Source of the DNA: an uncultured bacterium
Lineage (GTDB): Bacteria > Armatimonadota > Abditibacteriia > Abditibacteriales > Abditibacteriaceae
Length of the DNA stretch: 64,000 nt
Assembly: GCA_963843795.1 (NCBI GenBank)
Contig: CAWJLW010000006.1
Coordinates: 2,678,375 to 2,742,374, forward strand
Reading direction: 5' to 3'
In this document: piece after piece, positions 371-62,041 of the stretch
Position numbering within the stretch: position 1 is the stretch's first letter
Layout of the letters: the number at the start of each line of letters is the position of its first letter
The notes under the pieces: generated by a model
The model's database searches: none
What the model was told of the DNA's origin: nothing
Seen by the model: the letters and a program-made list of their open reading frames with translations, nothing else
Program-made: the position numbers and the translations under genes

Positions 371-523
371 AATCTCTCCCAAACCGCTCTGCAAGTACTT
401 GCAGAGAACAAAACGGTGACGAACACCGCGATATTTTTATTTCCGACTTCCATCAATTTAATGGCAAATAACTCGATAACAACGCCAGCGAACTCGCAAA
501 TGCGCCTACTCATACTTATCACG

Positions 524-570
524 CAGCCATATCGGAATTGTTACGGGAATGTTTCGTGTCATGTAACAAT
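524..570 (-). promoter_or_regulatory. Possible nitrogen-regulator operator upstream of gltB
   Basis: ATTGTTAC...GTAACAAT inverted repeat (537-570); minus strand reads GTTAC-N7-GAAAC-N6-GTAAC, similar to actinobacterial GlnR boxes. Confidence 0.3.
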
Positions 571-696
571 TTTTGGCCTTTCAGTGTGCCCGATAAAGCC
601 GCGTAAAACCGCAGCGTGTAGCTGACAATTTCTAATAATTCTTTTCACACCGTTAATTTTCGCACTTTTGGCGCACAATTGGCGAAGTGCGCTGAT

Positions 697-1356
697 ATGT
701 CCTCAAATCCTTCCACCCAAGATTTATCCGGCAATGCCAATCAGACCGCGCCCAATGGCAAAGATCGCAATGCTGATTTGCACGGCTTCGTGCCTGATTC
801 ATGCACGGTCGCGCTGCTTTTAATCGACGTTATCAACGATTTGGAATTCGACGGCGGCGAGAAACTTTTACCGCACGCACTGCCAATGGCCAAGCGTTTG
901 GCAACGCTTAAAAAGCGCGCGCACGAGGCAAAAATCCCCGTCGTTTACGTCAACGATAATATGGGTCGCTGGCAATCGGATTTTCACGCCGTCGTCGATG
1001 CTTGCTGCGATAGCAGAGTGCGCGGCCACGAAATCGCCAATTTGCTAAAGCCCGACGATCAAGATTATTTTGTTTTAAAGCCCAAACATTCCGGCTTTTA
1101 TTCGACGACGCTCGACTTGTTGTTGCAATATCTCGGCGCACGCACTTTAATTCTCTGCGGAATGGCCGGTGATATTTGCGTTTTGTTTACAGCCAACGAT
1201 GCCTATATGCGCGACTTCAACATCATCGTGCCGTGTGACGGTCTGGCTTCTCAAAGCGAAGAAAATAACACGCACGCCGTCGAAATCATGCAGCGCGTTT
1301 TGAAAGCCCAAACGTCGAAGATCGAAGAACTCGATTTGCCAACGTTGTTGAAATAA
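697..1356 (+). CDS. Isochorismatase-family cysteine hydrolase
   Basis: ALLLIDVIND, KPKHSGF, GMAGDICVLFTANDA motifs (D-K-C triad). Confidence 0.88.
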   Translation: MSSNPSTQDLSGNANQTAPNGKDRNADLHGFVPDSCTVALLLIDVINDLEFDGGEKLLPHALPMAKRLATLKKRAHEAKIPVVYVNDNMGRWQSDFHAVVDACCDSRVRGHEIANLLKPDDQDYFVLKPKHSGFYSTTLDLLLQYLGARTLILCGMAGDICVLFTANDAYMRDFNIIVPCDGLASQSEENNTHAVEIMQRVLKAQTSKIEELDLPTLLK

Positions 1357-1398
1357 ACGGCAGACAAATTCTTTCTGCAGGTACTGGCAAAGCGAATT

Positions 1399-1743
1399 TC
1401 ACGCTTTGCCTTTTCGTTTTTCTTTTGCCTCTTTTTTCGGCTCGACTTCTGGCACTTGCATCCACGGCATTCCCGGCACGCCGCGCCGCGATTCTTTCGC
1501 GGTTTCATCCAGCGCGCGCTTGAAACGTTGTAAGCGGCGCACGGTGATAATTATCATCACCAGCAGCGAAATTCCCAGCGCGAAGTTCCACACCATCGCC
1601 ATTGGCACATTGGCTTTGAGGGCGCTTTGACGCGCTAGAAACCACGCCCACAACAAAACGAAGCTCGCCACCATCGCCAAAGTTTCCCACAGCGGATGCT
1701 TTGTCGTTGGCGTCGAATCGGAAGCAGATTTTCGTGAAGCCAT
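1399..1743 (-). CDS. Small membrane protein (2 TM)
   Basis: 114 aa ORF with two hydrophobic helices; TAAACT-N7-ATG upstream. Confidence 0.7.
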   Translation of the reverse strand: MASRKSASDSTPTTKHPLWETLAMVASFVLLWAWFLARQSALKANVPMAMVWNFALGISLLVMIIITVRRLQRFKRALDETAKESRRGVPGMPWMQVPEVEPKKEAKEKRKGKA

Positions 1744-1827
1744 GCATCACAGTTTATCAAACGAGGCAGCAAGTACTTGCAGCACAATTTCCAGCGCGTA
1801 AACTCGCGCCATTCCAAAGGAGAAAAT

Positions 1828-3873: not shown

Positions 3874-3941
3874 AGTGGACAAAACTGTGAAAATAGGCAA
3901 AACCTAAAAAGCGCAAAAATTGTTGGCTAACTGACAAGCAC

Positions 3942-3975
3942 AAAATCGCACTGCAAGTACTTGCAGTGCGATTTT
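3942..3975. terminator. Bidirectional terminator hairpin with GCAAGTACTTGC core
   Basis: 34-bp perfect palindrome with A/T tracts, between convergent genes. Confidence 0.8.
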
Positions 3976-3988
3976 TTACATTTTCACG

Positions 3989-4459
3989 CTATCGCTTGAT
4001 TTGTGGCGTCCAACGATATGCGACCGCGATACGATTCCAGGCGTTAATCATCACGATGGTGCTGGTGAGCAATGCCAGCTCCTGCTCCGAAAAATGCCGA
4101 GAAGCTGCTTCATACACGTCATCGGGAACGTGGCTCTCGGCGACCAGCGTGATGGCTTCTGTCCACGCCAGAGCGGCGCGTTCGCGTTCGCTGTAAACCG
4201 GCGCTTCACGCCACGCGCACAGCAGTTGCAATCTGGCATCGGTTTCACCCAATTTTTGGGCGTCGGCAAAATGCATATTAAGACAAAAAGCGCAACCGTT
4301 GATTTGTGAGGCGCGTAACTTCACCAATTCCACTAACGTTGCTTCCAAACTGCTGTCACTGATTGCACGACCCATAGCGCGCAACGCACCAGTCGTTTCA
4401 GGCGCCAGTTCGTGAAATTTTGCTAACTCTGAGCGCGATTGTGGTTTGTGAATTTCCAT
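3989..4459 (-). CDS. Carboxymuconolactone decarboxylase / AhpD family protein
   Basis: ELVKLRASQINGCAFCLNMH, ERERAALAWTE, INAWNR. Confidence 0.9.
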   Translation of the reverse strand: MEIHKPQSRSELAKFHELAPETTGALRAMGRAISDSSLEATLVELVKLRASQINGCAFCLNMHFADAQKLGETDARLQLLCAWREAPVYSERERAALAWTEAITLVAESHVPDDVYEAASRHFSEQELALLTSTIVMINAWNRIAVAYRWTPQIKR

Positions 4460-4464
4460 AAAAT

Positions 4465-5283
4465 TCAATTGTAGTCGCGCACGACGTTTTCAATCAGTTC
4501 GCGCGCGCTGGCAATATCGCGTTTTTGCGCTTCGCCACCGATTTCGCGTTCGATAATCAATGGCCCGCGAAAGCCGCCATCCAATAACGCGCGCAGCCAA
4601 GGTTCAAAATCGACTTCGCCTTTGCCCAGCGGTTCTTCGTGACCTAAATGGCCTTCTTTAGTCGGCCAGCAGCCATCTTTGCAATGCACGCTGACAATCC
4701 ACGGCGCAAGTACTTGCAGGGCGTCCAAAGGCTTGTCGTTGCCATACATCATCATATTCGCCGGATCAAAATTGACGCGCAGATTATCGCGCCCAACATC
4801 GTTGATAAAGCGCGCTAGGGTGTTCGCAGTTTCCTGACCGGTTTCCAGAGCAAAAATCTGATCGTGCTTTGCCAGTTCGTCGCAAATATCGCGCGTCTGC
4901 TGCACGATTTCATCGTATAACGGATCGCTGGCGTTTTCGGGAATGAAGCCGATGTGGGTTTGCACCTGCGCGACGCCAAGTTGCTGCGCGAAGTGGGCGA
5001 TGTGCAAAAAATGTTCGATGCGCGCCTCGCGCGTGGCGGGCGGAACGAGACCGACGGTGTGCTGCACAGTTTCGATATCAGCGTAACTTTCGCCCGCGAA
5101 ATGCGCAATGACGGCAGAAATTTCAATGGGATGATGCAGCAGCGCCGCCATCAAAGGCGCGGCTTCGAGAGACGCGGGCGGGAAAATCTGCGCAGTTTCG
5201 AGCTGTAAATCTTGCAATTGTTGTAAATCGTGTTCGGGTTCGTCGCCAATGCTCCACGTCGAACCAATAATTAATTTTTTCAT
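4465..5283 (-). CDS. Sugar phosphate isomerase/epimerase (AP endonuclease 2 TIM barrel)
   Basis: ALETGQE, VNFDPAN, VHCKD, IIERE; ATG 5283 overlaps the hisD stop. Confidence 0.85.
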   Translation of the reverse strand: MKKLIIGSTWSIGDEPEHDLQQLQDLQLETAQIFPPASLEAAPLMAALLHHPIEISAVIAHFAGESYADIETVQHTVGLVPPATREARIEHFLHIAHFAQQLGVAQVQTHIGFIPENASDPLYDEIVQQTRDICDELAKHDQIFALETGQETANTLARFINDVGRDNLRVNFDPANMMMYGNDKPLDALQVLAPWIVSVHCKDGCWPTKEGHLGHEEPLGKGEVDFEPWLRALLDGGFRGPLIIEREIGGEAQKRDIASARELIENVVRDYN

Positions 5284-6590
5284 AGTGATTCCTTGTTGTT
5301 CGCCGCCATTTTCACCGCAGCGGCGTGTCCGGGCAAATCTTCCAAGAGCGCGATAATTTCCAAGTCGTCGGCCATTTTCGCAATCGCGCTGGGCGGCGCG
5401 GCCAATAGACTGCTGCGTTTCAAAAACGTCGCAACATCGACGCCACCGGAAAAACGTGCCGTACCGCCCGTCGGCAAGGTGTGTGATGGGCCAGCCATGT
5501 AATCGCCCAACGGCACCGGCGTGTTGAGAAAAATCGCGCCCGCGTGACGAATGTGGGCGCTCAAACCCAGCGCATCGCAGCTCCAAATTTCTAAATGCTC
5601 GGCTGCCGCTAAATTCGCTAGTTCGCACATTTGATTGGTATCGGTCACGCACAGCACCAAACCGTTGGGGAGAGATTGTTCTAAAATTTCGCGGCGCGGG
5701 CTGGCAAGTACTTGCGTTTGTAACTGTGCAAGTACTTGCTGCGAGATTTCATTGCTGTGACAAATCAAACACGCCCACGAATCGGCACCGTGTTCAGCTT
5801 GAGCCAATAAATCGGCGGCGATTTGCGCGCTGAGGTTGTCATCAATTTTGCGATAGTCGCAGACAATTACAACATCGCTTGGTCCGTATAAGCCATCGAC
5901 GCCGACCGCGCCGAAAACGTGTTTCTTGGCCAGCGTGCCGTAGATATTGGCCGGGCCAGCAATAGTATCGACGCGCGCAATCGTTTGGGTGCCATAAGCC
6001 ATTGCCGCAATCGCAACCGCGCCGCCCACTTTATAAATTTCTTCGATGCCGGCAATTTTCGCAGCCGCCAAAATGACCGGATGCAAGCTGCCATCGCGCG
6101 AAGGCGGCGAAGCGAGTACAATTTCGCGCACGCCAGCGACTTTAGCGGGCATCGCGACCGCCAAAACGCTTGATGGCAGCGCGGCGCGCGCGTTGGGCGC
6201 ATATAAACCGGCGCGGTCAACTGGCGTGAAACGCTGGCCCAAAAATGCGCCGTCAGGCGAAATTGTGTGCCAATCGCTGCGTGGCTGATGGCTGTGAAAA
6301 GCGGCGATATTGTCTGCCGCGCGCTGCAAAGCTTTTTTTTGCGCCGAATCCAACGTACGCCACGCGGCCTCGATTTCTGAGGGCGCAACGCGTAATTGTT
6401 CGCGCGTCAAATTTGGGCAGTCGAACTGGCGCTCGAAGCGCAAAACCGCCTCATCGCCTTCGCGGCGCACCGCATCGCAAACTTCGCGTACGATGGTTTC
6501 GATTTTGGGCTGGTCTTCAAAGGCGCGCGCGACGTTGGCTTTTTCCAAAGCGGCGCGGCACGATTCTAAACCGGAAAATACGGGCAACAT
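5280..6590 (-). CDS. hisD: Histidinol dehydrogenase
   Basis: DLLAQAEH, AEHLEI, GDYMAGPSHTLPTGG motifs. Confidence 0.95.
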   Translation of the reverse strand: MLPVFSGLESCRAALEKANVARAFEDQPKIETIVREVCDAVRREGDEAVLRFERQFDCPNLTREQLRVAPSEIEAAWRTLDSAQKKALQRAADNIAAFHSHQPRSDWHTISPDGAFLGQRFTPVDRAGLYAPNARAALPSSVLAVAMPAKVAGVREIVLASPPSRDGSLHPVILAAAKIAGIEEIYKVGGAVAIAAMAYGTQTIARVDTIAGPANIYGTLAKKHVFGAVGVDGLYGPSDVVIVCDYRKIDDNLSAQIAADLLAQAEHGADSWACLICHSNEISQQVLAQLQTQVLASPRREILEQSLPNGLVLCVTDTNQMCELANLAAAEHLEIWSCDALGLSAHIRHAGAIFLNTPVPLGDYMAGPSHTLPTGGTARFSGGVDVATFLKRSSLLAAPPSAIAKMADDLEIIALLEDLPGHAAAVKMAANNKESL

Positions 6591-6648
6591 AAAAATGATG
6601 AAATGAATAAAGCGGCGCGCGTTATTTTAGCAAATGATGGAGAAGACG

Positions 6649-7473: not shown

Positions 7474-7480
7474 GAATCGT

Positions 7481-7514
7481 AAAATCCCGCTGCAAGTACT
7501 TGCAGCGGGATTTT
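7481..7514. terminator. Bidirectional terminator hairpin with palindrome core
   Basis: 34-bp perfect palindrome plus T7 tract, between convergent genes. Confidence 0.82.
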
Positions 7515-8783: not shown

Positions 8784-9452
8784 ATGTTTGAAAAATCACA
8801 AGACAAGTTGAAACAGCCACCGCAAAAAAATGCTGCAAAACCCGGTTTTACTTTGATTGAGCTTTTAGTTGTCATAGCGATCATTGCAATTCTTGCTGCG
8901 ATCTTATTTCCGGTGTTTGCGCGCGCCCGCGAGAATGCGCGCAAAGCTAGTTGCGCCAGTAATTTGAAGCAAATTGGTCTGGGGCTGGCGCAATACCATC
9001 AAGACTACGAGCGGTTTGTCGCCAATGGCCAAACCGAAACCACCAATCCGCGCGTGCGCCTTGATCCTTATATCAAGAGCGATCAGATTTGGGTTTGCCC
9101 CAGCGAAGCGAATGCAACGGTTCGCGCGATGAGTAGCGGGCGCACCGTGAGTTATATGCTGAACAATCAATTACAGGCGCGTCAGGATGCCGATATTCGT
9201 TTCCCGGCACAAATGGTTGTCACTCACGATTCCGATCCCGGCGAACTGGGCTGGAACGAGGGCAACACTTGGGATAGCGGCAAAACTACCGACTGGCCGC
9301 ATTTGCGCGCTAACAATACGGGACGCGAAAGCTATCTCGAGCCTTGGTTCCAACGCCATAACGGAACCTTCAACGCGCTGTTTTACGATGGCCACGTCAA
9401 AAGTATTATCGCTGCGCCGACCACACTCACCGACGACAATTTCCTTCCCTAA
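8784..9452 (+). CDS. DUF1559-type prepilin N-terminal cleavage/methylation protein with H-X9-DG motif
   Basis: [46 protein letters not shown]. Confidence 0.92.
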
Positions 9453-9842: not shown

Positions 9843-10613
9843 ATGTTTTTAACTCAAAATCTACGCCGCACGAACAGGCCCAAGGGCTTTACTTTAATCG
9901 AACTGTTAGTTGTGATTGCCATTATTGCAATTCTTGCAGCGATTCTGTTTCCAGTTTTCGCTCAGGCACGCGAAGGCGCGCGCCGCACCGCGTGTCTGTC
10001 GAATTTAAAACAGTTAGGCACCGCGTTCCAGATGTATCAGCAAGATTACGACGGTCATTTTCACAAAGGCGAAAATATCACCACACCGGCCGTCAATGGC
10101 TTTGGCGCGCACAACGACATCGATGGCTGGACGGAATGGCCATGGTTTTATGGGCCTTATGTGAAAAACGTTGGTGTCTTCGATTGTCCTTCCAGCCCGG
10201 ATGGGACAGAAAACCTGACTGGCATCAACTGGGGCAACGATGGCAATTATGGGTACAATTATGATGGCCTGACACGCGATGTAAATAATCCGGCGCGTAT
10301 TGATGCCGAAATCGAGCGCCCTGCGGAAACTTTCGTTTTCTTTGATTGTGGCGATACTTCCGTGCGCGCGGGTGAAAACAATTGGGACGGCTTAATGGAA
10401 GAACTGGATTTGGACTGGGACAGCAAACGCGAGGGCGCGATTCGTCATCAGGGCCGCACCAACGTCGTGTTCGCCGATGGCCATGCCAAATCGGTCACGC
10501 CAGCGCAACTGCTTAAACGAAACGCCAACAATGTGGCGCCATGGATGATCGATTGGACGGATTGCAACCCGACCTGCACCGAACCTGCTTTCGACCCGAC
10601 GCCGTGGAATTGA
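9843..10613 (+). CDS. DUF1559-type prepilin protein with H-X9-DG motif
   Basis: [33 protein letters not shown]. Confidence 0.92.
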
Positions 10614-12310: not shown

Positions 12311-12346
12311 GAAAAATGCCCTGCAAGTACTTGCAGGGCATTTTTC
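12311..12346. terminator. Bidirectional terminator hairpin with palindrome core
   Basis: 36-bp perfect palindrome between convergent genes. Confidence 0.8.
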
Positions 12347-17472: not shown

Positions 17473-20400
17473 TCAATACGGCACTTGCAAACACTCTGCT
17501 TTCAACACACTCAGTAATTCCCCTGCGAATTCTTCGCTGGGTTCGACCCAATAATCGGGCGCGACGCGCAGTTGCATCATTTCCAACCCGTTGTCGATGT
17601 GGAGCCACACTTCGGTGTTGCCGTGATGGCGCTTGCAGATGTTCCACAATTTGCCCAACGTTTCCGCCGTCGCGCAATCTTCGCCGATGTGCAGATGCAC
17701 GCAGCCCGCAGCCCATTCCGGAGGCGAGAAAAAGCGCCCGATGCTTTCCACTGCATCGCCCCATTCGCCATTACTCGCCGTCGTGCTGGCCGCAAATTCC
17801 GGCGCGTAACTCGGCGCTTCGGGCACATAGCCGCCATTGGTGCCGTTGCCGTTTGCGCCGTTGGAATACGCGCCGTTGCCATTTGCTGGAGGAGAGTCGA
17901 TATTCGAACGATGGAGCGAAATGCCGTTGCCATTTTGTGGCGTAGCTGGTGTCGCAAGTACTTGCGGAGGCGCTGTATCAAGCGGCGGCGTTTCGGATGA
18001 CTCGGCAAGTACTTGCGGGGTCATAACTTCATCATAATCGGCGACTTCTTCCACGGGAATGAGTTCGATTTCGTCGGCCATGATTTTATACACCGTATCG
18101 CTTTCGGCGTCCTCGTCGTCGTTTGGCTTGAAGCCACCACGCCGCGTATCGGCGCTGATACGACCGCGCACAATTAAACGTGCGTCTTCTGTCACGCATT
18201 CGCCGCATTTTTCGTAGGTTTTGGCGAAGGCCAGAACTTCAATCGAACCGGCCAAATCTTCCAATCCGAAAATCGCCCACGGACGGCTGTTTTTGTCGAA
18301 GCGTTTCATCACGCTCGTTACCAGACCGCCGACTTCGACGCGCGCGCCATCGCGCAAACCTTCCTCGCCGATTTTATCCAGGCCACTGCAACGTCGCTCC
18401 AAAAAGCCGCGCAATGGCAGCAGCGGATGATCGGAAATATACAAGCCCAACAATTCTTTTTCCCACGTCAAACGCTCATCGCGCGAGGCATCGGGTACAT
18501 CTTCCAACGTGCCGGTAGATTTAATTTGTCCGGTTTCGGCGGGTGCGCCGAACAAATCGCCCTGACCTTTGCTGGCCGAAACCGCATCCAACAAAGCGCG
18601 ATCTACGGAATCCAAAGCGGCCTGACGATTGGGATGAATCGAATCGAAAGCGCCACATTTAATCAGCGTTTCGATAGCGCCTTTGCCACAGGCGCGCGGC
18701 GCAACGCGGGTGCAGAAATCGAAAATGCTGATGAAGCGCCCACCTTCTTTGCGCGCCTCGCAAATCGCCGCCACCGGCCCTTCGCCGATGCCTTTAATCG
18801 CCTGCAACCCGAAGCGAATGCTTTCCTCATGGCGCGCGCCGACAACCGTAAAGTCGCGGTTCGATTCGTTGACATCCGGTGCAAGTAACTTGCAGGCCAT
18901 TTTTGCGGCAATCGTCAATGACGACCAGCAATTTGTCTTTCTTTTCCAGCAAAGACGTCATCTTGCAAGCCATAAATTCCGGCTTGTAATTCGTCTTCAG
19001 CCATGCCGTCCAATACGAAACCAAACCATAATACGCGGCGTGACTTTTGTTAAACGCGTAGCGTGCGAAGGCCTCCATGCGCTCGAAAATTTCGGTCGCG
19101 TCGGCGTTGCTGATTTTGTTGGCTTTGCAGCCTTCCAGAAACAGCGGTTTCATCGCCGCCATTTCGTCGGCTTTTTTCTTCGACATCGCTTTCATCAGCG
19201 ATTCGGCCTGACCGCCGGTGAAGTTGGCCAGCACCGTCGAGGCTTGCATCACTTGCTCTTGATAGAGCAGCATGCCGTAAGTGTCTTTCAAGACGGCTTC
19301 GAGTTTGGGATGCGGATAAGTCACTTTGCCGCCGAAACGGCCTTGAATGTAGCGCGGAATTTCGTCCATCGGGCCGGGACGATACAAAGAAATCTGCGCG
19401 ATGATATGTTCCAGATTTTCCGGTTTCAGTTCGCGCAGTAATTTGCGCATTCCGGTGCCTTCCATCTGGAAAACCGCGATACCGTCACCTTTGCCCAACA
19501 TATCGTACACGCGCTTGTCGTTGAGTTCGATGGATTCAAGGTCGATTTTTTCGTTGTGGCGACTTTCGATGAGTTCCAGCGTATCGTTGATGACGGTATT
19601 GTTTTGCAAACCCAGAAAGTCCATCTTCACCAAGCCGACTTTTTCGACCGCTTTGGCGTGATACTGCGTGATGATGTCGCCGTCTTTTTCTTCCAACGGC
19701 ACCAGTTCGTCCAGCGCTTCCTTGCCAATGACCACGCCGCAAGCGTGGCGACTCGCGTGGCGCGTGAAACCTTCGATTTGCTGCGCCGTATCGAGCAGGT
19801 TTTTGACCTGCGAATCGGAAGAATATAAATCGCCGAGTTCTTTGACTTCTTCAATCGCTTTGGCAATCGAAATCGCGTGGCCCGGAATCGCGGGAATCAT
19901 CTTCGACACGTTATCGGCCAGCTTCAAATCCAAGCCCATCGCGCGCGCCGAATCGCGCACTGCCGCGCGCGCGGCCAGAGTTCCGAACGTGATAATCTGC
20001 GCGACTTTTTCCTTGCCGTACTTATCGCTGACGTATTTCAAAACTTCGTCGCGTCGTTTGTCGGGAAAGTCCACGTCAATATCGGGCGTGCTTTTGCGTT
20101 CAGGATTCAGAAAACGCTCGAACAGCAAACCATACGGCAACGGATCGAGGTTGGTGATGCCCAACACATACGACACCAAACAGCCCGCCGCCGAGCCGCG
20201 ACAGCCGACTAAAATGCCGCGACTTTTACTCCAGTTGATGAAATCCTGCACCACCAGAAAATAGCCGGGATAACCTTTGTCAATGATAATTTGCTGCTCA
20301 TACGCCATGCGCTTGCGCGCTTCGGCTTCGCGCGGATGGCCTTTGGGATAGCGCGATGGGAAACGTTCTTCGCACAGATGCTTGAAATACGAAGTCAAGT

Positions 20401-21289
20401 CGTGGCCTTGAGGCACTTCGTAATGCGGAAAATGCGTGGTTTTGAGATCGAGTTCCACGTTGCACATTTCGGCGATGCGAATGGTGTTTTCCAGCGCTTC
20501 GGGAACGTGCTTGAACTTTTCCCACATCTCATCGGCGCTTTTTAGATAAAAGTTCGGCCCGTAATGCAACGCCGCTTTATCCAATGTGCTGTTGGTGCCG
20601 ATGCAGACCAGAACTTTATGCATGCGCTCGTCGCTGGCTTTGAGATAATGCGCGTCGTTGGTCGCAACGAGCGGAATTCCGGTGCGGTGATGAATGTCAA
20701 TCACGCGCTGATTGACTTCGTCTTGCCCCGTCAAATCGTGATCCATCAATTCGAGGAAGAAGTTTTCCTTGCCGAAAATATCGCGGTATTTTTCTGCCCG
20801 ATGCACGGCTTCATCGAATTTTTGCCCAACGATAAGCTGCGGAATTTCGCCGCCCAAACACGCGCTGCCGCAAATGATGCCTTCGGAATGTTCGGCCAAC
20901 ATTTCGTGATCGACGCGCGGCTTATAGTAAAAGCCGTGCAGGTTGGCTTTGGTCGTCAGCTTGACCAAATTTTTGTAGCCCTGAAGATTTTTCGCCCACA
21001 ACGTGAGATGGCGCGTGTGTTTTTGCGAATCGAGTTGCGAATCTTTGTCCTTGTGCGTGCGCGGAGCGACATACGCTTCGACGCCGATTACGGGTTTAAT
21101 GCCTTGTTTCAGGCACGCTTCGTAATGGTCAATCGCACCGTACATCACGCCGTGATCGGTGATGGCGGCGGCGGGCATATCCATTTCGGCGGCGCGTTTG
21201 GCGATGTCGCCGATGCGATTGGCGCCGTCGAGGAGCGAATATTCGGAATGAACGTGCAAATGACAAAAACCACAGGGACACTTCGACAT
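17473..21289 (-). CDS. dnaE: DNA polymerase III alpha subunit, split by a +1 frameshift near 18887
   Basis: HLHVHSEYSLLDG PHP domain, PDIDVDF, KMDFLGL, YAFNKSHA in ORF 18827..21334; PDVNES, IRFGLQAIKG, EKELLGLYISDHPL in ORF 17473..18918. Confidence 0.95.
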
Positions 21290-21485
21290 AATAATGAGAA
21301 AATTCAGAGAAATTCGGAGGAAAGCGGCGCGCAAATCGCGGGCAGCCCATTAGGTTTTAGCACAGCGCGACGCCGATAAACAGACTTGACGCGCGGTTCC
21401 AAGGCAGGTATCGCGCAACTTTTCGCGTGCCTGATGCGCGGCGTCGCTTTGTCCACAACTTTATCCCCAAAACAGGAAATTTTCT

Positions 21486-25835: not shown

Positions 25836-25888
25836 AACCAAAGCGCCCTGCAAGTTACTTGCGCAAGTACTTGCAGGGCGCTTTGGTT
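25836..25888. repeat. Tandem double-core hairpin (first core has an extra T)
   Basis: AACCAAAGCGCCCT-GCAAGTTACTTGC-GCAAGTACTTGC-AGGGCGCTTTGGTT. Confidence 0.85.
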
Positions 25889-27524: not shown

Positions 27525-27584
27525 AAACGTAAAAAGCGCGCTGCAAGTACTTGCGCAAGTACTTGCAGCGCGCTTTTTACGTTT
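27525..27584. repeat. 60-bp perfect palindrome with tandem double core
   Basis: AAACGTAAAAAGCGCGCT-(GCAAGTACTTGC)x2-AGCGCGCTTTTTACGTTT; probable terminator of 27599..28372. Confidence 0.9.
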
Positions 27585-29330: not shown

Positions 29331-29389
29331 TTTTGGTGAGAAAAATGTGCTGCAAGTATGCTGCAAGTACTTGCAGGGCGCTTTTGTTG

Positions 29390-29791: not shown

Positions 29792-32296
29792 TCAATCATG
29801 ACGCGGCTCGACTTTCATCAAATTGCGCACGAAGAAATCCCACACGCGGCGCTTGCCATACGGCGAGCCTTGCGTGCCGTGTCCCGCGCCCGGCACCACC
29901 AATAAATCGAAATCTTTGTCGGCCTTGACCAGCGCGTCCACCACTTGCATCGTGCTCGCGGGATCAACGTTGGTGTCCATTTCGCCGACCATCAGGAACA
30001 GTTTGCCGGTGAGGTTTTTGGCGACGCCGATGCTGGAATTTTCTTCATACGACTTATCGACCGGCCAGCCCATCCACTGCTCGTTCCACCAAATTTTGTC
30101 CATGCGATTGTCGTAGCAACCGCAATCAGCGACTGAGGCTTGGTAAAAATCACCGTGCCGCAAAATCGCGCTCAAAGCGTTCATGCCGCCCGCCGAGGTG
30201 CCTTTGATTCCCACGCGCGTGGCGTCGATATACGGATATTTCTGCGCGGCGGCTTTGATCCACAATTCGCGGTCGGGCAAACCGGCATCGGAAAGGTTTT
30301 TCCAACACACGTCCATGAAACTTTTCGAGCGATTGGTCGTGCCCATGCCATCAATGATGACCGTGATAAAGCCCAGTTCGGCTAAATCCTGCGTATTCAC
30401 GGAATCGGAAAACGCCAAGGGCACCACAGAAATGCCCGGCCCGGCGTAAATATCTTCCACCACCGGATATTTTTTGTTCACATCCAAATTCGTCGGGCGA
30501 ACAATCACGCCATAAATATCGGTCGTGCCATCGCGCCCTTTGGCGACGAATGGTTCGGGAAATTTCCAGCCGGTTTTCAGCAGTTCGCTCGCATCGGCGC
30601 GCTGCAATTCCGAAAGCATTTTGCCGTCGCTGCTGCGGTGCAATTCCCAGACAGGCGGCAAATCGACGCGCGAATATTGATCGACGTAAAATTCGTTGTC
30701 CGGCGAAAAGGTCACGTTATGCGTGCCATCGCCTTGCGTCAAAATCGTCAGGCCAGTGCCATCGAAATTGATGCGACAATAATCGACGTAATACGGATTG
30801 TGATTCGGGTGAGCGCCGCGCGTGCGAAACCAAATCTGGCGCTTCTCTTCATCGACGCGATCCACTTCGCGCACTACGAAATTGCCTTTGGTAATCTGAT
30901 TTTTGACTTTTCCAGTCAGCGTGTCATATAAATACAAATGATTCCAATTGTCGCGTTCGCTCATCCAAATCGCTTCGTGCGTTTTGTCCAAACGCCGCAA
31001 AAACGTCTTGCCGCTGTATTCGATGAACGTCTTGGACGTTTCATCAATTAAGCTGCGCGTTTGCCCATCGGTTTTCACTTCGACCAAGCGCAGCAATTGA
31101 TGGCCGCGCTGATTGTACAAAAAGGTGAAACGCGAAGAATCCTTATCCCATTCCAGCCAGCCAATGTCCCACGGATTGGCAAATAAATCGTCTTTAACTG
31201 CGATGTGCTTCTTGTTCACCACATCGAACAATTGCGGACGTTCGTGGCGCACGCGATCGCCGGGTTTGAGATATTGATTTTCGTGCAACTTCGGCTGCAC
31301 TTGGTCGGGCGGCGAAGATTCCACGAAATACACTTTATGTTCTTGTTCTGGCTCGACTTTCATCAGCGTGAAAAACTTGCCATCCGGCGACCATTGCGGT
31401 TCACCTTCGTAACGATTCTGCGCCGTACCGTCTGTGGTCAACGGCGTTTCGGATTGGGTTTTCACATCGCGCAAGGCGAGATTGAAATTCTTAAAAATCA
31501 CCTGCTGCGTGCCATCGGGCGATAAGTTAGCCTCGCGGCGCGGCGCACGTTTTTCCATGTCGACCATTTTGCCGTCGATAATCGCCACGCCGGGCACATC
31601 TTCGCTGAGAAACGTCGCCCAATCTTCGCCCGCGAGTTGAATCAGCCACGCGTGGCCGGCGAATGTGGTGCGCTTGAGCGTATCGCCCGCTTTAATCGCG
31701 CCGTAATCGTGACGCTTGCCATCAGAGTCGATCCAAAACAGCGCGGCGTCTTTGCCGCTGCGATTGATAAAAGTGACAACCGTCGCCGCGCCGGTTCCGA
31801 CCGAACGCCGCGCGTCGCGCACATTGCGCGCTTTGATTTGGCCCAAAGCATCGGCCTCGATTTTCTTGAGCGCATACGTCGCCAAATCCAACTGCCAAAC
31901 CTGCGCATTCTGCAAAAAGCGCAGCGTGTTGTCTTTTTGAAATTCCAAACGTTCGATGGGCAAACGTTCGGCATCAACTTTTTCGCCCAAAGCCGCTGCA
32001 AGTACTTGCGCCAGCTTTTGATGATCGAACGCGGGCGCTTTCGGCGTTTTGGCGTTTGGATCAACGCGAATAAATTGGTGGCGTCCGTCGAGTTCATCGC
32101 TGCGATACCAGAACTGCGCAGTCTCGCCAATCCAAAACGGACGTAATTCGGCGCGCGCGACTTTATTGCGCGTATTATCGCGCAGTTTCAATGCGCGCTC
32201 ATAATCGGCGCGCGAACCTTGCGCGCGCGCAGCATCGTGTGCCAGCGGAAGCGTTGTCATCATTAAAGCCAAAGCAAAGGTGTGAAGCGTTTTCAT
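29792..32296 (-). CDS. S9B (dipeptidyl peptidase IV-like) peptidase, secreted
   Basis: Signal peptide; DPP IV beta-propeller; GTSAGG, DTNVD, GAGH catalytic motifs. Confidence 0.9.
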   Translation of the reverse strand: MKTLHTFALALMMTTLPLAHDAARAQGSRADYERALKLRDNTRNKVARAELRPFWIGETAQFWYRSDELDGRHQFIRVDPNAKTPKAPAFDHQKLAQVLAAALGEKVDAERLPIERLEFQKDNTLRFLQNAQVWQLDLATYALKKIEADALGQIKARNVRDARRSVGTGAATVVTFINRSGKDAALFWIDSDGKRHDYGAIKAGDTLKRTTFAGHAWLIQLAGEDWATFLSEDVPGVAIIDGKMVDMEKRAPRREANLSPDGTQQVIFKNFNLALRDVKTQSETPLTTDGTAQNRYEGEPQWSPDGKFFTLMKVEPEQEHKVYFVESSPPDQVQPKLHENQYLKPGDRVRHERPQLFDVVNKKHIAVKDDLFANPWDIGWLEWDKDSSRFTFLYNQRGHQLLRLVEVKTDGQTRSLIDETSKTFIEYSGKTFLRRLDKTHEAIWMSERDNWNHLYLYDTLTGKVKNQITKGNFVVREVDRVDEEKRQIWFRTRGAHPNHNPYYVDYCRINFDGTGLTILTQGDGTHNVTFSPDNEFYVDQYSRVDLPPVWELHRSSDGKMLSELQRADASELLKTGWKFPEPFVAKGRDGTTDIYGVIVRPTNLDVNKKYPVVEDIYAGPGISVVPLAFSDSVNTQDLAELGFITVIIDGMGTTNRSKSFMDVCWKNLSDAGLPDRELWIKAAAQKYPYIDATRVGIKGTSAGGMNALSAILRHGDFYQASVADCGCYDNRMDKIWWNEQWMGWPVDKSYEENSSIGVAKNLTGKLFLMVGEMDTNVDPASTMQVVDALVKADKDFDLLVVPGAGHGTQGSPYGKRRVWDFFVRNLMKVEPRHD

Positions 32297-36728: not shown

Positions 36729-37609
36729 TGACTGTTTTTGATGCTTACAACCGTTCGGTGCAGCGTTTAATCGAAGCATTAAATTTACCGCGCGACGAGG
36801 CTTGCGTGCGCGCGCGTTTGTTGCTGGACCAAATCGTGCAAACGCGGCACGCACATTTGTTAGTGCCGCTGCAAGAACTTGCCGAAGACCAACTCTCGCG
36901 CTGGCAAACCCTGTTGGGCGAAGCTCTCAGCGGGCGTCCACTGCCGTATATTTTGGGCGAATGGGAATTTTGGGGATTAGGTTTTCGGGTCGATGAGCGC
37001 GTGCTCATTCCGCGACCCGAAACCGAAATTCTGGTCGAAGCGACTTTGCAGCGTTTAAAAAATATCGACGCGCCGCGTATCGGCGATTTGGGAACCGGCA
37101 GCGGTTGCATCGCGATTTCACTGGCTCACGAACGCAGCGATGCAACGGTTATTGCCACCGATTTATCAAGTGACAGCTTGCAATTGGCGCAGCAGAATGC
37201 GGCGCGTCTGGGTGTGAAAAATCGGATCGAATGGCGAATCGGTGAAATCGGAAATTGGGGAGCGCCGTTGCAGGCTGCGGCAAGTACTTGCCGCGCTCTT
37301 TTCGATGCGATTGTGTCGAATCCGCCTTATATTCCAGCGCGCGAAATCGAGAATTTGCAAATCGAAGTGCGCGCTTACGAACCGCGTCGCGCTCTGGATG
37401 GCGGTGCAGACGGTGTGCGCGATTATCGTTTGATGGCAACACAATTGAAACCTTTTTTGAAACCAGATGGCTTTCTTGCGCTGGAATTTGGGCACGGACA
37501 GTTTGCAACGTTGCGGGAAATTTTTGAAAATGAAGGCTGGCAAGTCGGCGCGCCATTGTGCGATAATGCCGGTCTGGAACGCGCGCTGATTGCGACGAAA
37601 AAAGAATAA
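36728..37609 (+). CDS. prmC: Release factor glutamine methyltransferase
   Basis: PLPYILG, VLIPRPETE, DLGTGSGCIA, SNPPY, ALDGG. Confidence 0.93.
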   Translation: MTVFDAYNRSVQRLIEALNLPRDEACVRARLLLDQIVQTRHAHLLVPLQELAEDQLSRWQTLLGEALSGRPLPYILGEWEFWGLGFRVDERVLIPRPETEILVEATLQRLKNIDAPRIGDLGTGSGCIAISLAHERSDATVIATDLSSDSLQLAQQNAARLGVKNRIEWRIGEIGNWGAPLQAAASTCRALFDAIVSNPPYIPAREIENLQIEVRAYEPRRALDGGADGVRDYRLMATQLKPFLKPDGFLALEFGHGQFATLREIFENEGWQVGAPLCDNAGLERALIATKKE

Positions 37610-42799: not shown

Positions 42800-42833
42800 A
42801 AAACGTCCCTGCAAGTACTTGCAGGGACGTTTT
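42800..42833. terminator. Terminator hairpin with palindrome core
   Basis: 34-bp perfect palindrome ending in a T tract after the operon. Confidence 0.78.
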
Positions 42834-45589: not shown

Positions 45590-46393
45590 ATGAAAATTAA
45601 TTTCAAGTCAGAAACCGCGCGAGCGAGCGGTGAATCACCCAAAGCGGTGAAACGTGCATGGAGCACGCGCAACTGGCGTTTGCGCGCGTTCACGCTTATC
45701 GAACTTTTGGTCGTGATAGCGATCATAGCGATCCTCGCCGCAATTTTGTTTCCGGTTTTCGCCCGCGCTCGTGAAAACGCGCGTCGCGCGAGCTGCCAGA
45801 GCAACTTGAAGCAGATCGGATTGGGCGCATTGCAATATGTGCAAGATTACGATGAAACCTACAGTGGTAGCTTTCGCGACAATCCGAATACGGCACGCGT
45901 TTCTTATGCTGAAATGCTGCAGCCATACATTAAGAGCACGCAAATTTTCACTTGCCCCAGTGCTACTACCGGGCAGCGTTTGGACAATGATGGCATAAAC
46001 AATTGCGCAGCCAACCCGATCACCTGCAATGCCAACATTAGCTACGCTTACAACAGCATTACTGATCCTAACATCGGAAACGCCAACGGAGACCGCGCTA
46101 ACAACCCGGCTTCAGCCATTACCGATCCTGCAACGACAATTTTGTTGATGGATGGTCGCAACAGTTTTTACAACGTGTGGCGCACAGATGAAACCGACGT
46201 GAAGGGCAGCTTTTACGGCAGCAACTGGAACGGTAACAACACAGCTGGTGCGAACACACAAACCCCCACTCCTCGTCACTTGGAAGGCGCCAACTACCTG
46301 TGGTATGATGGACATGTCAAGTTTGGCAGAAGCTCACGCTACAGCAATGGTGGCCCTTATTACTGGTATATCGCCAAGCCGGCCACCCCGTAA
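45590..46393 (+). CDS. DUF1559-type prepilin protein with H-X9-DG motif
   Basis: [33 protein letters not shown]. Confidence 0.92.
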
Positions 46394-50007: not shown

Positions 50008-50010
50008 TTT

Positions 50011-52625: not shown

Positions 52626-53201
52626 ATGAGCGCCAACTCTAACACCGAACTGCCCAATCTCAGTGGGCAAATGCCAACCGATGCCGAAGGTTCCAGCACG
52701 CTAGGACGCGATGCCGCCGAATCAAAGCAAACGCCGCTACGCGAAAATCTGGATGTGCGTGGCGAATTGACTCTGGCTTTATTGCCGACTCTGACGATTT
52801 TGTTGGTGCTGGGCTTAATTGAAGCGTTGAGCAATCAGCGTTTGTTGTTCGCTTCTTTGGCTTCGAGCGCGTTTTTGATTTATCTCGATCCCGGGCATAA
52901 AACCAATACCATGCGCACGCTGCTCATCGCGCATACCCTGGCCGCGCTAACTGGCACCTTAGCTCATCTAATTTTCGGCGATGGCTATCTTTCGGCGGGT
53001 GTCGCGATGGTGGTTTTGGTCATCACGATGATTGTGCTCAACGCCGTTCATCCACCCGCCGTTTCCACAGCGTTGGCTTTTGCGTTTCGTCAGGCACCGG
53101 AATCGAATTTAGCGTTGTTTGAATTATCGCTTTTAGTGGTTGTACTTTTGGTCGCATTGCAACGCGGCGCGACTTGGCTGTTGGCACGACTGCAACGCTA
53201 A
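52626..53201 (+). CDS. HPP family membrane protein
   Basis: LFASLASSA, VHPPA, several TM helices. Confidence 0.88.
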   Translation: MSANSNTELPNLSGQMPTDAEGSSTLGRDAAESKQTPLRENLDVRGELTLALLPTLTILLVLGLIEALSNQRLLFASLASSAFLIYLDPGHKTNTMRTLLIAHTLAALTGTLAHLIFGDGYLSAGVAMVVLVITMIVLNAVHPPAVSTALAFAFRQAPESNLALFELSLLVVVLLVALQRGATWLLARLQR

Positions 53202-53233
53202 ACGCCCGCTGCAAGTACTTGCAGCGGGCGTTT
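53200..53233. terminator. Bidirectional terminator hairpin with palindrome core
   Basis: 34-bp perfect palindrome between convergent genes. Confidence 0.8.
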
Positions 53234-56912: not shown

Positions 56913-56956
56913 GCTACGAATTGGCCTTGCAAGTACTTGCAAGGCCAATTCGTAGC
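56913..56956. repeat. 44-bp perfect palindrome with the 12-bp core, between divergent genes
   Basis: GCTACGAATTGGCCTT-GCAAGTACTTGC-AAGGCCAATTCGTAGC. Confidence 0.88.
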
Positions 56957-57105
56957 GTGAGCCAGCTGCAGTTGCAGCTGTGAATTGCGGCTGTGAAATC
57001 ACGAAGCGAAAACGGTTTGCTATCCTTGAAAGCGGATAATTGCATTTCGACCCATTCGGCTGCAGATGCACCATTAAAATAAATTAATGCGACAGCGTGG
57101 AAACT

Positions 57106-58161: not shown

Positions 58162-58220
58162 AAAGGCGCTGCAAGTACTTGCGCCCGTAATTGCAGCGCA
58201 CAATTTCCCTTTCGTTTTTC

Positions 58221-59402
58221 ATGCTGCTCGATTTTGAAGGTCAACGCATCAGTGGGCGCGAACCGTTCGCCACGCTCGAAGCGCGCGGCAATGTGGCGCA
58301 TTGGAAGAATGTGTCTGCCACGCCAAGTGCAAGTTGGCAAAACGAAACCGATTTTTTCGCGGCATGGCGCGCGCTCAATGCGTGGGGCAAAATCCATTTT
58401 CCATCTGGCGGCGCTCTGGGGTTTTTAAGTTACGATTGGGCGCGCGTCCTCGAACCACGCGCTTTTTCCCAACCGTGCGCGAAAAATGAAACGCAGTTGC
58501 CGGATGTGCGCGTGACGTTTTTTCGTCATCTTGATGAAGCACCCTCGCCGCCCGCAGGAGAAAATTTAGGGCGCGTCTCGACGCTGGGAAGTGAAGCCGA
58601 AGCTGATGGCAAGTACTTGCAGGACGTGCGATGTGTTCAAGATTTCATTGCGCGCGGCGATATTTATCAGGCCAACTTAACGCGCCGTTTCGAGCAGGAA
58701 TTGAACTGTGCGCCGCGCTCATTATATGAACGTTTGCGCGCAAACCACGCAGTGAATTTCGGCGCGTTTCTGGAATGGGACGACTGGCAAATCGTTTCCA
58801 ATTCTCCCGAACGTTTCGTGCGTTTGCGTAATCGCGAACTTTTGGCGCAGCCGATCAAAGGCACTATCGCGCGCGGACGAAATGCGCAGGATGATGCCAA
58901 ATTACGCGCGCAATTGCAATTTTCGCCCAAAGACCGCGCGGAAAATGTGATGATCGTTGATTTGCTGCGTAACGATCTGGGTCGGGTTTGCGAATGGGGC
59001 AGCGTGCGTGTGCCGCGTTTGTGGGCGATTGAAACCTTCGGCACACTGCATCATTTGGTTTCGGATGTAAGCGGCATTTTGCGCGAAAATTTGGACGGTT
59101 TGGATGTCTTACGTGCCTTATTTCCATGCGGCTCGATTACCGGTGCGCCGAAAATTCGCGCGATGCAAATTTTAGACGAGTTAGAGCCAGTGAAACGCGG
59201 CGTCGCGATGGGTGCACTGGGCTATTGGAAATTTGGTGGCGATATGGATTGGAACGTCGCCATTCGCACTGTGACATGCCGCGAAGGTCGCGCCGAATTT
59301 CATTGCGGCGGCGGCATCGTGGCCGATAGTCGCGCCGAGGATGAGTGGCGAGAATTGCAATTGAAAGCGCGCGCGCTGCGCACTGCCCTGGCAATGCTGT
59401 GA
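58221..59402 (+). CDS. pabB: Aminodeoxychorismate synthase / anthranilate synthase component I family
   Basis: GDIYQANL, SPERF, PIKGT, AENVMIVDLLRND, FPCGSITGAPK. Confidence 0.85.
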   Translation: MLLDFEGQRISGREPFATLEARGNVAHWKNVSATPSASWQNETDFFAAWRALNAWGKIHFPSGGALGFLSYDWARVLEPRAFSQPCAKNETQLPDVRVTFFRHLDEAPSPPAGENLGRVSTLGSEAEADGKYLQDVRCVQDFIARGDIYQANLTRRFEQELNCAPRSLYERLRANHAVNFGAFLEWDDWQIVSNSPERFVRLRNRELLAQPIKGTIARGRNAQDDAKLRAQLQFSPKDRAENVMIVDLLRNDLGRVCEWGSVRVPRLWAIETFGTLHHLVSDVSGILRENLDGLDVLRALFPCGSITGAPKIRAMQILDELEPVKRGVAMGALGYWKFGGDMDWNVAIRTVTCREGRAEFHCGGGIVADSRAEDEWRELQLKARALRTALAML

Positions 59403-59472
59403 ACTGTGTGGCAAGTACTTGCCACTGCAATAACGCAGCAACTACGCTGTCGGGTTATAATTTTTTGGAATC

Positions 59473-61113
59473 GTGACACTGTTCTATCTCCTTAACGGCT
59501 GGGCCGGACGCATTGCATGGTTGGACGAAGCGATGCGTTTTTTTTACGTGTGCGCCGTGCCCCTTTTGTGGACGGGCGTCGCATGGTCACTGCTGCTGGC
59601 CCCGCGCCCGCGCCTTTCCGCTGCGCCGCGCATTTCGCGACGCGCGCTAGCGGGCGCCGGTTTGGTCGCGCTCGCGGGCTGCTTTGCGCTCTGGTGGGCG
59701 ATTATTGCGATGGCGCAGACCGCTTGGGATACCGATGTTTTCTCGCCGCGCCCTTTTGTCACACATTGGGTCAATGCTCTGGTCGTAGAACCCAACGATA
59801 ATTCTTATCCTTGTCTGGAAGTGATGCTGGCCGCTTGTGGGGCCACGTTGTTGTGGGCTTTTTCGCCGCGCACCGGCGTTGTGGCATGGTCAATAGTGGC
59901 GCTTTATGGATTCGCACGCATTTACTGCGGCAGCAATTTTCCGATTGATGTGGGCGCGGCTTGGCTCAGCGGCTGTGCTGTTACGGCGCTGGTTTTAGCG
60001 ATTTGTCGGTTGCCGCTCACTATTCATTCGCGCGATACGCGTCTGGTTTGGCGGCGGCGGCATCAAGCTGCACTTTCGAGCTTTGCCATTGCACTGATTT
60101 TAGGTGTTGCTCTGCTCGATGTGATGCGTTCGCCACGCAGCGGCACGACTGGAGGCACACCTAAGACTGCCGCGCTCGAGGCGCCGCGCATCGAAGGCCG
60201 TGCGCAAGCCGCGCCGCTGGCTCAGCACGATTTCTCGCCAACGCCCATAGGCGAAGGTGTGCCCGAAGGCGCAGCGACGTTGAAAAGCGACGCGGAGCAC
60301 AACGCAACACCGGCGTTGCCGCTTGATGATCGTTACGGACGCCAGCCAAAAATGGAAAAGCAGTTGCAAGTGGCTTTCGAGCGCGCCAAGCTGATGCACG
60401 ACATCGTTCATATCGAAGTCGCGCAAGTCACGATTGGAACTTCGCCATTTCGTGTAGCGGGCATTCAATTTCAAGTTGTGCCGGGCCGAGCCAACGAACG
60501 CAAATTATCCGCGCAAAGCGCCGCTCGCATCGTGCGCATCTGCTTTCAAACCCTGCCAACTCTGGCCAACGTTGATATATTGGGCGTAATTTTCCCAACC
60601 GAAGCGTCTAGCGCAGCGGGTCAAACCTTCGGAGAAGGTGGCGCACCCGCACCGGCCAACGAAGCGCCACGCGCGCTGCCGGTTTTCACGGCCTCCATTC
60701 AAAAACAAAACCTGATTCTGGCCAACGGCCCGGCGTGGCTCAACGCGCCCAAAGTCGATGATGGATTGTGGTTGCGCGCGCGCTCGCGACTTTTCATAGA
60801 TCCCGAAATTTTGCCCTCAACCGCCGAATCTCAACCAACACCAGTCCCCACACCGACCGTTCTGCCCACACCAACAGAGGTTCCAACCGCGACGCCACTC
60901 CCCAAACCAACCGTTGTACCGACAGCGAAACCAACCGGGAAACCAATCGTTCCAATTCCCGCGCTGGTGAAACCACAGCCCAAGCCAGCGGTAGCTCAAT
61001 CAAAATCAACGGCTAAACCGCAACCAAAAGCTGCAGCGCGACGCATGGCACCACGTAGATATGTGACAAAAAAACGTCGTTATCGATCAACAAAAAGGCG
61101 AAAAACACGCTAA
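59473..61113 (+). CDS. PAP2-like membrane domain fused to an extramembrane domain and Pro/Thr-rich basic tail
   Basis: PRPF, SYP, ARIYCGSNFPIDV; PT repeats; K/R-rich end. Confidence 0.72.
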   Translation: MTLFYLLNGWAGRIAWLDEAMRFFYVCAVPLLWTGVAWSLLLAPRPRLSAAPRISRRALAGAGLVALAGCFALWWAIIAMAQTAWDTDVFSPRPFVTHWVNALVVEPNDNSYPCLEVMLAACGATLLWAFSPRTGVVAWSIVALYGFARIYCGSNFPIDVGAAWLSGCAVTALVLAICRLPLTIHSRDTRLVWRRRHQAALSSFAIALILGVALLDVMRSPRSGTTGGTPKTAALEAPRIEGRAQAAPLAQHDFSPTPIGEGVPEGAATLKSDAEHNATPALPLDDRYGRQPKMEKQLQVAFERAKLMHDIVHIEVAQVTIGTSPFRVAGIQFQVVPGRANERKLSAQSAARIVRICFQTLPTLANVDILGVIFPTEASSAAGQTFGEGGAPAPANEAPRALPVFTASIQKQNLILANGPAWLNAPKVDDGLWLRARSRLFIDPEILPSTAESQPTPVPTPTVLPTPTEVPTATPLPKPTVVPTAKPTGKPIVPIPALVKPQPKPAVAQSKSTAKPQPKAAARRMAPRRYVTKKRRYRSTKRRKTR

Positions 61114-61167
61114 TGTGCGCCATTCCAAACAAAGTTTAGTGCCCGAACTGGCTGCAAGTACTTGCCT

Positions 61168-61965
61168 ATGATTTCTGAAGTTTCCAATCATTCTTCCAAC
61201 GCCACGCCGTTCGATCATTCGGCGCCGGAGAGCACACATTGGGTTTGGTGGCGCTGGCTGGCGTTCACGGTCAGTTTGGTGGCTATCTGGTTTGGCTATA
61301 TGGCGTGGCGCCCGCCCGGCCCGATTTTGGGCATTCGGCACGTCGAGCATTTGGGCCGCGACACGCCGTATGTGGCGCTGAATTTCGATGACGCGCCGCA
61401 TCCGGTTATCACGCCCTTGCTGCTGGCTTCGCTCAAACGTTCCGGCGTGCCAGGCAATTTTTTCGCGGTCGGCGATGGTCTTAAGCGCTATCCCGAACTG
61501 GCGCGGCGCTTGGTGCAGGAAGGCCACCTCATCGCGAACCATTCGCAAAATCATCACAATCTCACGCGACTGGAAGACGAAACTTACCAGCAGGAAATCG
61601 AGCCGTGCTTTGAAGCCATCGCCCATACTTATCGCGACGCCGGAATTGATAGGCAGGCGCATATGTTCCGACCGCCGGGTGGTGGCATGAATCGCAGCGT
61701 GATGAATTATCTGTGGCAGCGTGACATCACGCTCGCGTGGTGGAGCAACAATGTCGGTGATTGGGCTCGCCCTCCGGGTTGGAAAATAGTTAACACGGTC
61801 ACTCCGCATCTGCGCCCTGGCGACATCATTCTGCTGCACGACGCGCCCGGCGGTTACGGCACGCCGCAAGCGATTCCCGCCATCGTGCGCGCCGCGCGCA
61901 AACAAAACCTGGAATTCGTTCACATGCCCGATCAATGGCAAACCGGACAACGCGCGCTGAAATAA
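61168..61965 (+). CDS. Polysaccharide deacetylase (NodB/CE4)
   Basis: LNFDDAP, NHSQNH, FRPPGG, DW, IILLHD. Confidence 0.9.
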   Translation: MISEVSNHSSNATPFDHSAPESTHWVWWRWLAFTVSLVAIWFGYMAWRPPGPILGIRHVEHLGRDTPYVALNFDDAPHPVITPLLLASLKRSGVPGNFFAVGDGLKRYPELARRLVQEGHLIANHSQNHHNLTRLEDETYQQEIEPCFEAIAHTYRDAGIDRQAHMFRPPGGGMNRSVMNYLWQRDITLAWWSNNVGDWARPPGWKIVNTVTPHLRPGDIILLHDAPGGYGTPQAIPAIVRAARKQNLEFVHMPDQWQTGQRALK

Positions 61966-62041
61966 AATCGAGGAAAGACGCTCGATTTGCGCGGCAAGTA
62001 CTTGCTACCGACCAACACGCACGACGCACCCTTTCTCGACC

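Follow-up and report, generated by a model that had tools for sequence, protein, structure and literature searches.

What does a 12-bp palindrome do that recurs dozens of times in one stretch of bacterial DNA? The word GCAAGTACTTGC occurs exactly 50 times (positions 391 to 62005; none in 100 dinucleotide shuffles) in the window, that is, the whole 64,000-nucleotide stretch of contig CAWJLW010000006.1 analyzed here. Homologues of the proteins of its uncultured host carry Abditibacteriaceae names, including Abditibacterium utsteinense at 77%. An earlier note on this DNA had counted about 50 exact copies and proposed a lineage-specific, highly iterated signal unlike any described system. The observation is confirmed as real and genome-wide. 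To our knowledge, only two bacterial families have established sequence-specific uptake signals, and the word looks like a previously undescribed uptake-like signal outside both. It behaves like the DNA uptake sequence (DUS) of Neisseria in every sequence-level test run, and a role as a species-level tag of self-DNA for natural transformation, spread by molecular drive, is the favored explanation at slightly better than even odds.

Copies in the window and in the genome

Within the window, 22 of the 50 copies have the longer form TGCAAGTACTTGCA. According to gene calls made for this analysis, 36 are intergenic and 14 intragenic, close to the earlier split of about 35 and 15, and the roughly 12 near-variants then noted are in line with four one-mismatch copies (0.17 expected), six two-mismatch copies and about seven with an indel or heavier decay. 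A comparison of the window with Rfam gave no match.

The host genome (G000; 4.3 Mb, 11 contigs, 92% complete; other G numbers denote the Armatimonadota genomes compared) holds 2,567 exact copies, which are spread over 11 of 11 contigs rather than confined to one, at 0.6 per kb and a mean spacing of 1,575 bp. Counting against Markov and codon-use models, as the earlier note had suggested, gave an expectation after masking of 0.1 (order 3), 7.4 (order 5) or 57 (order 7) copies, and within genes 745 uses of the word against 4.8. The looser genome-wide consensus is CTGCAAGTACTTGCAG, with T-rich tails 8-11 bp out, mainly at spacer copies. All 12 positions of the palindrome are constrained: one-mismatch copies number 506, distributed over position pairs 1 to 6 as 110, 40, 62, 154, 60 and 80, with all positions hit.

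Among 3,486 genes from a simple purpose-built caller (86% coding; the C-terminal half of dnaE was missed), 751 copies lie in genes (29%), 39 at gene edges and 1,777 in spacers (about 70%), which corresponds to 0.20 per kb in genes and 3.0 per kb in spacers. The word is present in 275 of 445 convergent, 1,085 of 2,185 tandem and 230 of 467 divergent spacers. Copies are spread evenly over both replichores: 34 of the 36 full 100-kb bins contain 51-83, and each of the four bins around the skew-inferred terminus has 54-64. Neither terminus nor origin bias was found in the host genome, and the 22 stretches of G009 likewise lack a broad gap. The two largest word-free gaps, 26 kb each, are a region rich in insertion sequences and a type I restriction island, and contig C3 has 3 copies in 40.6 kb. 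This contig carries an extracellular contractile-injection-like cluster (L149-L150; sheath, baseplate, Pvc16, AAA ATPase) that is nearly motif-free.

Many spacer copies are predicted to form the tips of terminator-like hairpins. The palindrome extends by at least 6 bp at 66% of convergent, 26% of tandem and 12% of divergent spacer copies, and shows no extension at 64% of the 751 in-gene copies. In a crude scan, 699 of 1,102 hairpin-plus-T4 candidates hold the core (both strands, bidirectional ones counted twice), and folding gave strong hairpins for six of six spacer examples, picked for visible arms, and for none of two in-gene examples. Each site has arms of its own, up to 33 perfect bp beyond the 12-mer, the common part being only 12-16 bp. 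Loopless palindromes are present also in relatives without the word. The features of the window are as follows, with the strand where one is assigned.

391-62005: exact copies of GCAAGTACTTGC (looser consensus CTGCAAGTACTTGCAG), dispersed and 50 in number, out of 2,567 in the genome
3942-3975: perfect hairpin between convergent genes, flanked by A and T tails and tipped by a copy; resembles a bidirectional terminator (z -6.6)
7481-7514: copy at a terminator-like hairpin tip, convergent gap (z -7.6)
12311-12346: copy at a terminator-like hairpin tip, convergent gap (z -8.3)
25850-25874: decayed copy and exact copy in one hairpin; similar at 29352, 33660, 44240 and 58186
27525-27584: two abutting copies (27543, 27555) as the stem of one long hairpin (z -10.9)
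34895/34907: abutting pair arranged like 27543/27555
42800-42833: copy at a terminator-like hairpin tip, tandem gap (z -6.8)
53200-53233: copy at a terminator-like hairpin tip, convergent gap (z -5.7)
56913-56956: longest perfect palindrome of the window around a single copy, 16 bp past the 12-mer on each side, divergent gap
5704-5739, minus strand: two in-frame copies within hisD (5280-6590), read QVLA
17954-18016, minus strand: two in-frame copies in the C-terminal half of dnaE
18881-18893, minus strand: copy with one extra central base, an apparent frameshift by which the single dnaE is split; an assembly error at the motif is the most likely cause
37280-37291, plus strand: in-frame copy in prmC, read ASTC, at a poorly conserved position
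58609-58620, plus strand: in-frame copy in a pabB-like gene, read KYLQ, without an extended hairpin

The word is not peculiar to one assembly. Short-read contigs of one public run, possibly from the source sample, cross the sites at 31998, 35638 and 35662 without a difference, which bears the word out in reads at these three sites. Several other metagenome assemblies supplied 33 loci, chosen by one 22-mer match, in which 278 copies of AAGTACTT were counted in 268 kb; 27 of the 33 align to the host genome at 66-76% identity, with the looser word at about 1 per kb. An extra central base is found in 66 copies (2.6% of sites) of the host assembly only. It is probably a sequencing error at the word, caused by a modified base or a hairpin, because the equivalent insertion is absent or nearly so elsewhere (0 of 278 and 0 of 95 in samples of relatives, 0-3 per genome in four others). 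Basecalling errors can fall at modified bases. One such base, in the copy at 18881, splits the only dnaE (17473-21334, minus strand). Further genes, pilC and pilus-tip genes, look split in the assembly, and together these splits suggest long-read indel errors; only nine frameshifts were located by means of proteins from relatives, one of them at the motif.

Imprint on proteins and dialects in the family

The proteome bears a clear trace of the word. It is used at 745 of 843 peptide positions that could encode it. The tetrapeptide QVLA occurs 566 times against 38.5 expected (15-fold) and is the most over-represented of the proteome; ASTC (133 against 4, 33-fold) and KYLQ (104 against 5, 21-fold) are likewise in excess, and shuffled words are not over-represented. 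The 751 in-gene copies are distributed over the reading frames as 494, 142 and 115. In 200 orthologue pairs from 440 kb of G009, the in-gene sites fall at weakly conserved residues (identity 0.39 vs 0.59), and alignment gaps are more frequent near them (26% vs 14%; 46% vs 14% in another comparison). Six of 73 in-gene sites coincide with AGTACT in G009 (0.72 expected), in part where the amino acids differ, and in a same-genus genome six of 14 coincide (0.14 expected). The word has accordingly been gained at the expense of protein sequence, and some positions seem older than the present dialects.

The lineage specificity proposed in the earlier note holds, since each of 400 further Armatimonadota genomes has only 0-3 exact copies of the 12-mer. 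Six of the 27 family genomes have 2,813-4,733 copies of the core AGTACT, the remaining 21 have 1-285. Dialects comprising at least six words, palindromic and non-palindromic, were detected in ten of the 27. Relatives were found to carry five other AGTACT palindromes, and sampled DNA yielded the consensus words CAAAGTACTTTG (G001), TCGAGTACTCGA (G009, G015 and G019) and CGAGTACTCG (G012). The word of G006 is the non-palindromic AGTACGGTCGAA, with 55 sites in 73 kb on both strands, 32 of them in inverted pairs. A second, unrelated signal is the non-palindromic CAGCCACG, which occurs at about 0.65 per kb (3,091 copies in G007, 3,503 in G016 and 2,676 in G018; reversed control about 300) and is at background in G013 and G010. 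It extends to about 16 bp in G016, where inverted pairs are common (16 of 36); such pairs are rare in G007 (8 of 68) and lacking in G018 (0 of 21). No signal was found in 17 family genomes, of which 16-117 kb each were sampled, so that weaker words may be missed. In a rough tree of 23 genomes, built on two genes and weak in its backbone, carriers of AGTAC-type words stand among non-carriers and carriers of CAGCCACG form a separate clade, which points to repeated gains or losses.

The word is thus, judged by sequence, one dialect of a family-wide set, and the non-palindromic members of this set shift the closest analogy from the cyanobacterial highly iterated palindrome HIP1 towards DUS and the Pasteurellaceae uptake signal sequence (USS). 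Neither the word nor such signals in Abditibacteriaceae were found in the literature searched, mostly open-access texts exclusive of supplementary tables. A 16-mer scan of species representatives gave, among the matches listed, at least 36 single matches in unrelated taxa, which leaves room for further occurrences. Viral contigs had single matches only (155 loci of at least 4 kb out of 226 stretches), and the three richest in AGTACT showed random flanks and no homologue in the host genome.

Repeats of G013, G017 and G020 were rejected as dialects, since they are tandem repeats or longer elements. In L158 (G017:C44:100001-120000), a longer repeat recurs about ten times on the same strand at intervals of 0.4-6 kb and resembles an integron attC cassette array. 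A longer repeat of G013 (L064:2498-2642, L013:1358-1490) forms inverted pairs about 130 bp apart and is similar to miniature inverted-repeat transposable elements (MITEs) or repetitive extragenic palindromic (REP) elements.

A proposed self-DNA tag and its rivals

The earlier note had offered DNA uptake, methylation-directed processes and nucleoid-protein binding as functions, and the first of these fits best. A sequence-specific step of transformation, be it a pilus-borne receptor or later transport or recombination, would favor DNA that bears the word. Favored fragments would recombine into the chromosome, and new and repaired copies would spread by molecular drive. Purifying selection would then decide where copies persist, namely in spacers, at hairpin tips that double as terminators and at tolerant protein positions, and shifts in the specificity of the reader would rewrite the word in each lineage and give rise to dialects. 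The competence genes that the earlier note had proposed to look for are present in the host genome: ComEC, ComEA, DprA, PilT, PilC, prepilin peptidase and minor pilins, with a pilB/pilT/pilC/prepilin-peptidase/minor-pilin cluster. The window itself has three prepilin-like genes (8784-9452, 9843-10613 and 45590-46393) of a paralogous family with more than 20 members in the genome.

Several points weigh against uptake. ComEC is present in all 27 family genomes and ComEA in 25, the 17 signal-free genomes included; the competence genes therefore do not discriminate. The host genome yielded no receptor candidate, neither of its two aligned pilus-cluster pilins has a net basic charge, and no dialect-linked pattern was seen by eye in either of these pilins or in ComEA. 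Known DUS and USS words are non-palindromic, whereas a strict palindrome of 12-16 bp would be expected of a site read by a homodimeric cytoplasmic protein, and any tolerated site of protein binding should show the intergenic bias just as well. Sites are shared across genera to a modest extent, and this sharing weakens against a control of shared Val-Leu columns (2 of 9 vs 13 of 194). Structure prediction for a pilin from its single sequence was unusable (predicted local distance difference test score 35), and the neighbors of ComEC and ComEA include nothing specific to signal-bearing genomes. In the signal-free G010 (L229, L133), ComEA (62 aa) and ComEC (558 aa) have short open frames, through decay or assembly error.

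An abundant homodimeric cytoplasmic protein, such as a nucleoid organizer or a repair or termination factor, whose recognition helix drifted between lineages, is an unlikely alternative reader. The strict palindrome with 12 of 12 positions constrained agrees with it, as does a spacing evener than exponential (423 gaps of 200-800 bp vs 626). The Escherichia coli SlmA-binding sequence is likewise a 12-bp palindrome centered on AGTACT, but SlmA sites keep away from the terminus and have a TetR protein as their reader (PMC3020112), and the host word has no terminus gap. No TetR was found in G000 or in G001 (63% complete). Noc, parS and matS sites are excluded from or confined to one chromosome domain. 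The host word, unlike these, is tied to no single domain, and no second chromosomal ParB-family reader was found: G009 has a single ParB and G000 four, three of them in an island or on small contigs, none being consistently Noc-like in the two genomes. Nucleoid-occlusion-type binding, the form in which the nucleoid option was considered, is accordingly disfavored. The family moreover has non-palindromic dialects, and selection rewriting proteins at each of 2,500 sites would be harder to obtain than drive.

Rather improbable is a mechanism modeled on HIP1 (PMC4390886). GTAC or AGTACT would carry the mark of an orphan adenine methyltransferase, and repair or recombination directed by methylation would lengthen the palindrome into its flanks in the manner of a ratchet. 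Uptake would then be secondary, or would require the methyl mark as in Campylobacter, in which case the uptake-tag and ratchet readings overlap. The earlier statement that the window has no cognate enzyme stands; outside it, the only beta-class N6/N4 methyltransferase found in G000 is an orphan of adenine type, and no C5 or D12 enzyme was found there. This gene is present in 22 of 27 family genomes (broken in two) and in none of four outside the family, is better conserved among relatives than PrmC (56-75% vs 43-54% identity) and has no conserved neighbor across the family. It occurs in seven of seven genomes with AGTAC-type words, but also in 13 signal-free genomes and two with CAGCCACG, and was not found in G016, a third CAGCCACG carrier. 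Its best solved relatives are distant. The enzyme is a candidate partner of the word whose distribution fits poorly. In its favor, the extra central base of the host assembly is what basecalling at a modified base might give, although a hairpin could equally account for it.

Also in favor of this mechanism, GTAC is nearly eliminated in the sampled loci of 11 carriers of the enzyme, which form one clade of the methyltransferase tree, with an observed/expected ratio of 0.00-0.08 (G005, G008, G011, G014, G007, G018, G013, G022, G024, G262 and G221); G005 has one AGTACT in 6 Mb. GTAC is avoided without the methyltransferase as well, in G002 (0.28) and G016 (0.11). Scarce GTAC can accompany an old GTAC restriction-modification system in Helicobacter pylori (PMC2588503), which makes something GTAC-specific in the past of the Abditibacteriaceae plausible by analogy. 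A gene with HARE-HTH and Mrr nuclease domains directly upstream of the methyltransferase was rejected as the general cause of avoidance, being limited to three of 31 genomes, G005, G014 and G221 (L217:576-1373, L183:1029-1901, L400); G000 has only a distant Mrr. The R.PabI family gave no match in 27 genomes, nor did its positive control. Upstream of the host methyltransferase lie genes with little or no Pfam match (L146:8097-14037; G000:C6, about 2,518-2,524 kb), two of which are 68% identical paralogues.

HIP1 and alternate HIPs are iterated palindromes at about one per 1-1.5 kb with alternative words in related lineages (PMC4390886; PMC13756078), the genome has a conserved orphan methyltransferase, and methylated HIP1 raises transformation (PMC4390886; PMC13756078; bioRxiv 10.1101/2024.09.10.611283). 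All these features but the last have counterparts here, the methyltransferase link being only a candidate. HIPs are 5-8 bp long and mostly GC-rich (PMC4390886; PMC13756078), whereas the host word has 12-16 bp, 50% GC and non-palindromic sister words, and its one-off variants affect all positions without the bias to the first or last base known from HIP1 (PMC4390886).

A selfish element of REP or MITE type, spread by an HUH transposase or Ssn-type nuclease, is highly improbable. The hairpin context, the long perfect arms, which suggest a symmetrizing process, and the alignment gaps near in-gene sites would suit it, and REP elements with their REP-associated tyrosine transposases (RAYTs) are likewise abundant spacer palindromes, often past stop codons (PMC3733652). 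They differ from the word, however, in having a conserved 20-40-bp body (PMC3733652); here the arms vary by site, 29% of the copies lie in frame within genes and loopless palindromes occur in relatives without the word. The search for a RAYT or HUH nuclease came out against this option: G000 has one weak Y1 transposase match without a flanking array and no convincing RAYT locus, G006 has none, and no short GIY-YIG protein was found in G000, both matches being part of long reading frames (450 and 672 aa). Barely credible, finally, is a favored terminator tip without a role at the DNA level, or an assembly artifact: a compact stem with a 4-base loop in most crude terminator candidates would fit the former, but the in-gene copies and proteome imprint, together with independent assemblies, dialects and short-read support, largely refute both.

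Relation to known signals and meaning

The Neisseria DUS has about 1,900 exact and about 810 one-off copies, a spacing of 1,150-1,500 bp and 34-42% of copies in genes (PMC2397512). The self-DNA tag proposed here shares with DUS and USS thousands of exact 10-12-mer copies at about 1.5-kb spacing, a third or so of them in genes with frame bias and at permissive positions, as well as the terminator link, lineage dialects, scarcity in islands and competence genes (PMC2397512; bioRxiv 10.1101/2025.10.24.684340). It differs in sequence and phylum, in being a perfect palindrome at a hairpin tip instead of a stem pair, in its patchy occurrence within the family, and in that no receptor resembling ComP of the DUS system (PMC3868556) was found in the host genome. 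As an unrelated palindrome it is not a member of the DUS or USS sequence families and is at most a work-alike.

The methylated RAATTY of Campylobacter, acting with the adenine methyltransferase CtsM, has also been proposed as a palindromic self-mark for selective uptake (as cited in PMC10046745); the host word is twice as long, has species-specific flanks and is only a candidate for methylation. Chi and KOPS (FtsK orienting polar sequences) are polarized along replication. The host palindrome, by contrast, has no polarity, and 16 stretches of G007 revealed no local strand bias of its sister word CAGCCACG.

Tentatively, a third family of DNA uptake sequences may have evolved independently in the Abditibacteriaceae; it would be the first to include palindromic dialects and is possibly licensed by the orphan adenine methyltransferase. 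Such a family would bridge the pilin-read DUS and the methylation-dependent HIP1 and RAATTY. The reason for the accumulation of HIP1 has been open for thirty years (PMC13756078). In practical terms, the word may open a barely cultured group to transformation, marks foreign islands and can help to sort metagenome contigs of Abditibacteriaceae. A lineage with several dialects and with relatives that lack or avoid the word allows comparative tests of molecular drive, receptor-word co-evolution and methylation; if the proposal is true, the gain, loss and change of a word within one family, next to the near-elimination of GTAC in sister lineages, would amount to a natural experiment on the origin of such signals.

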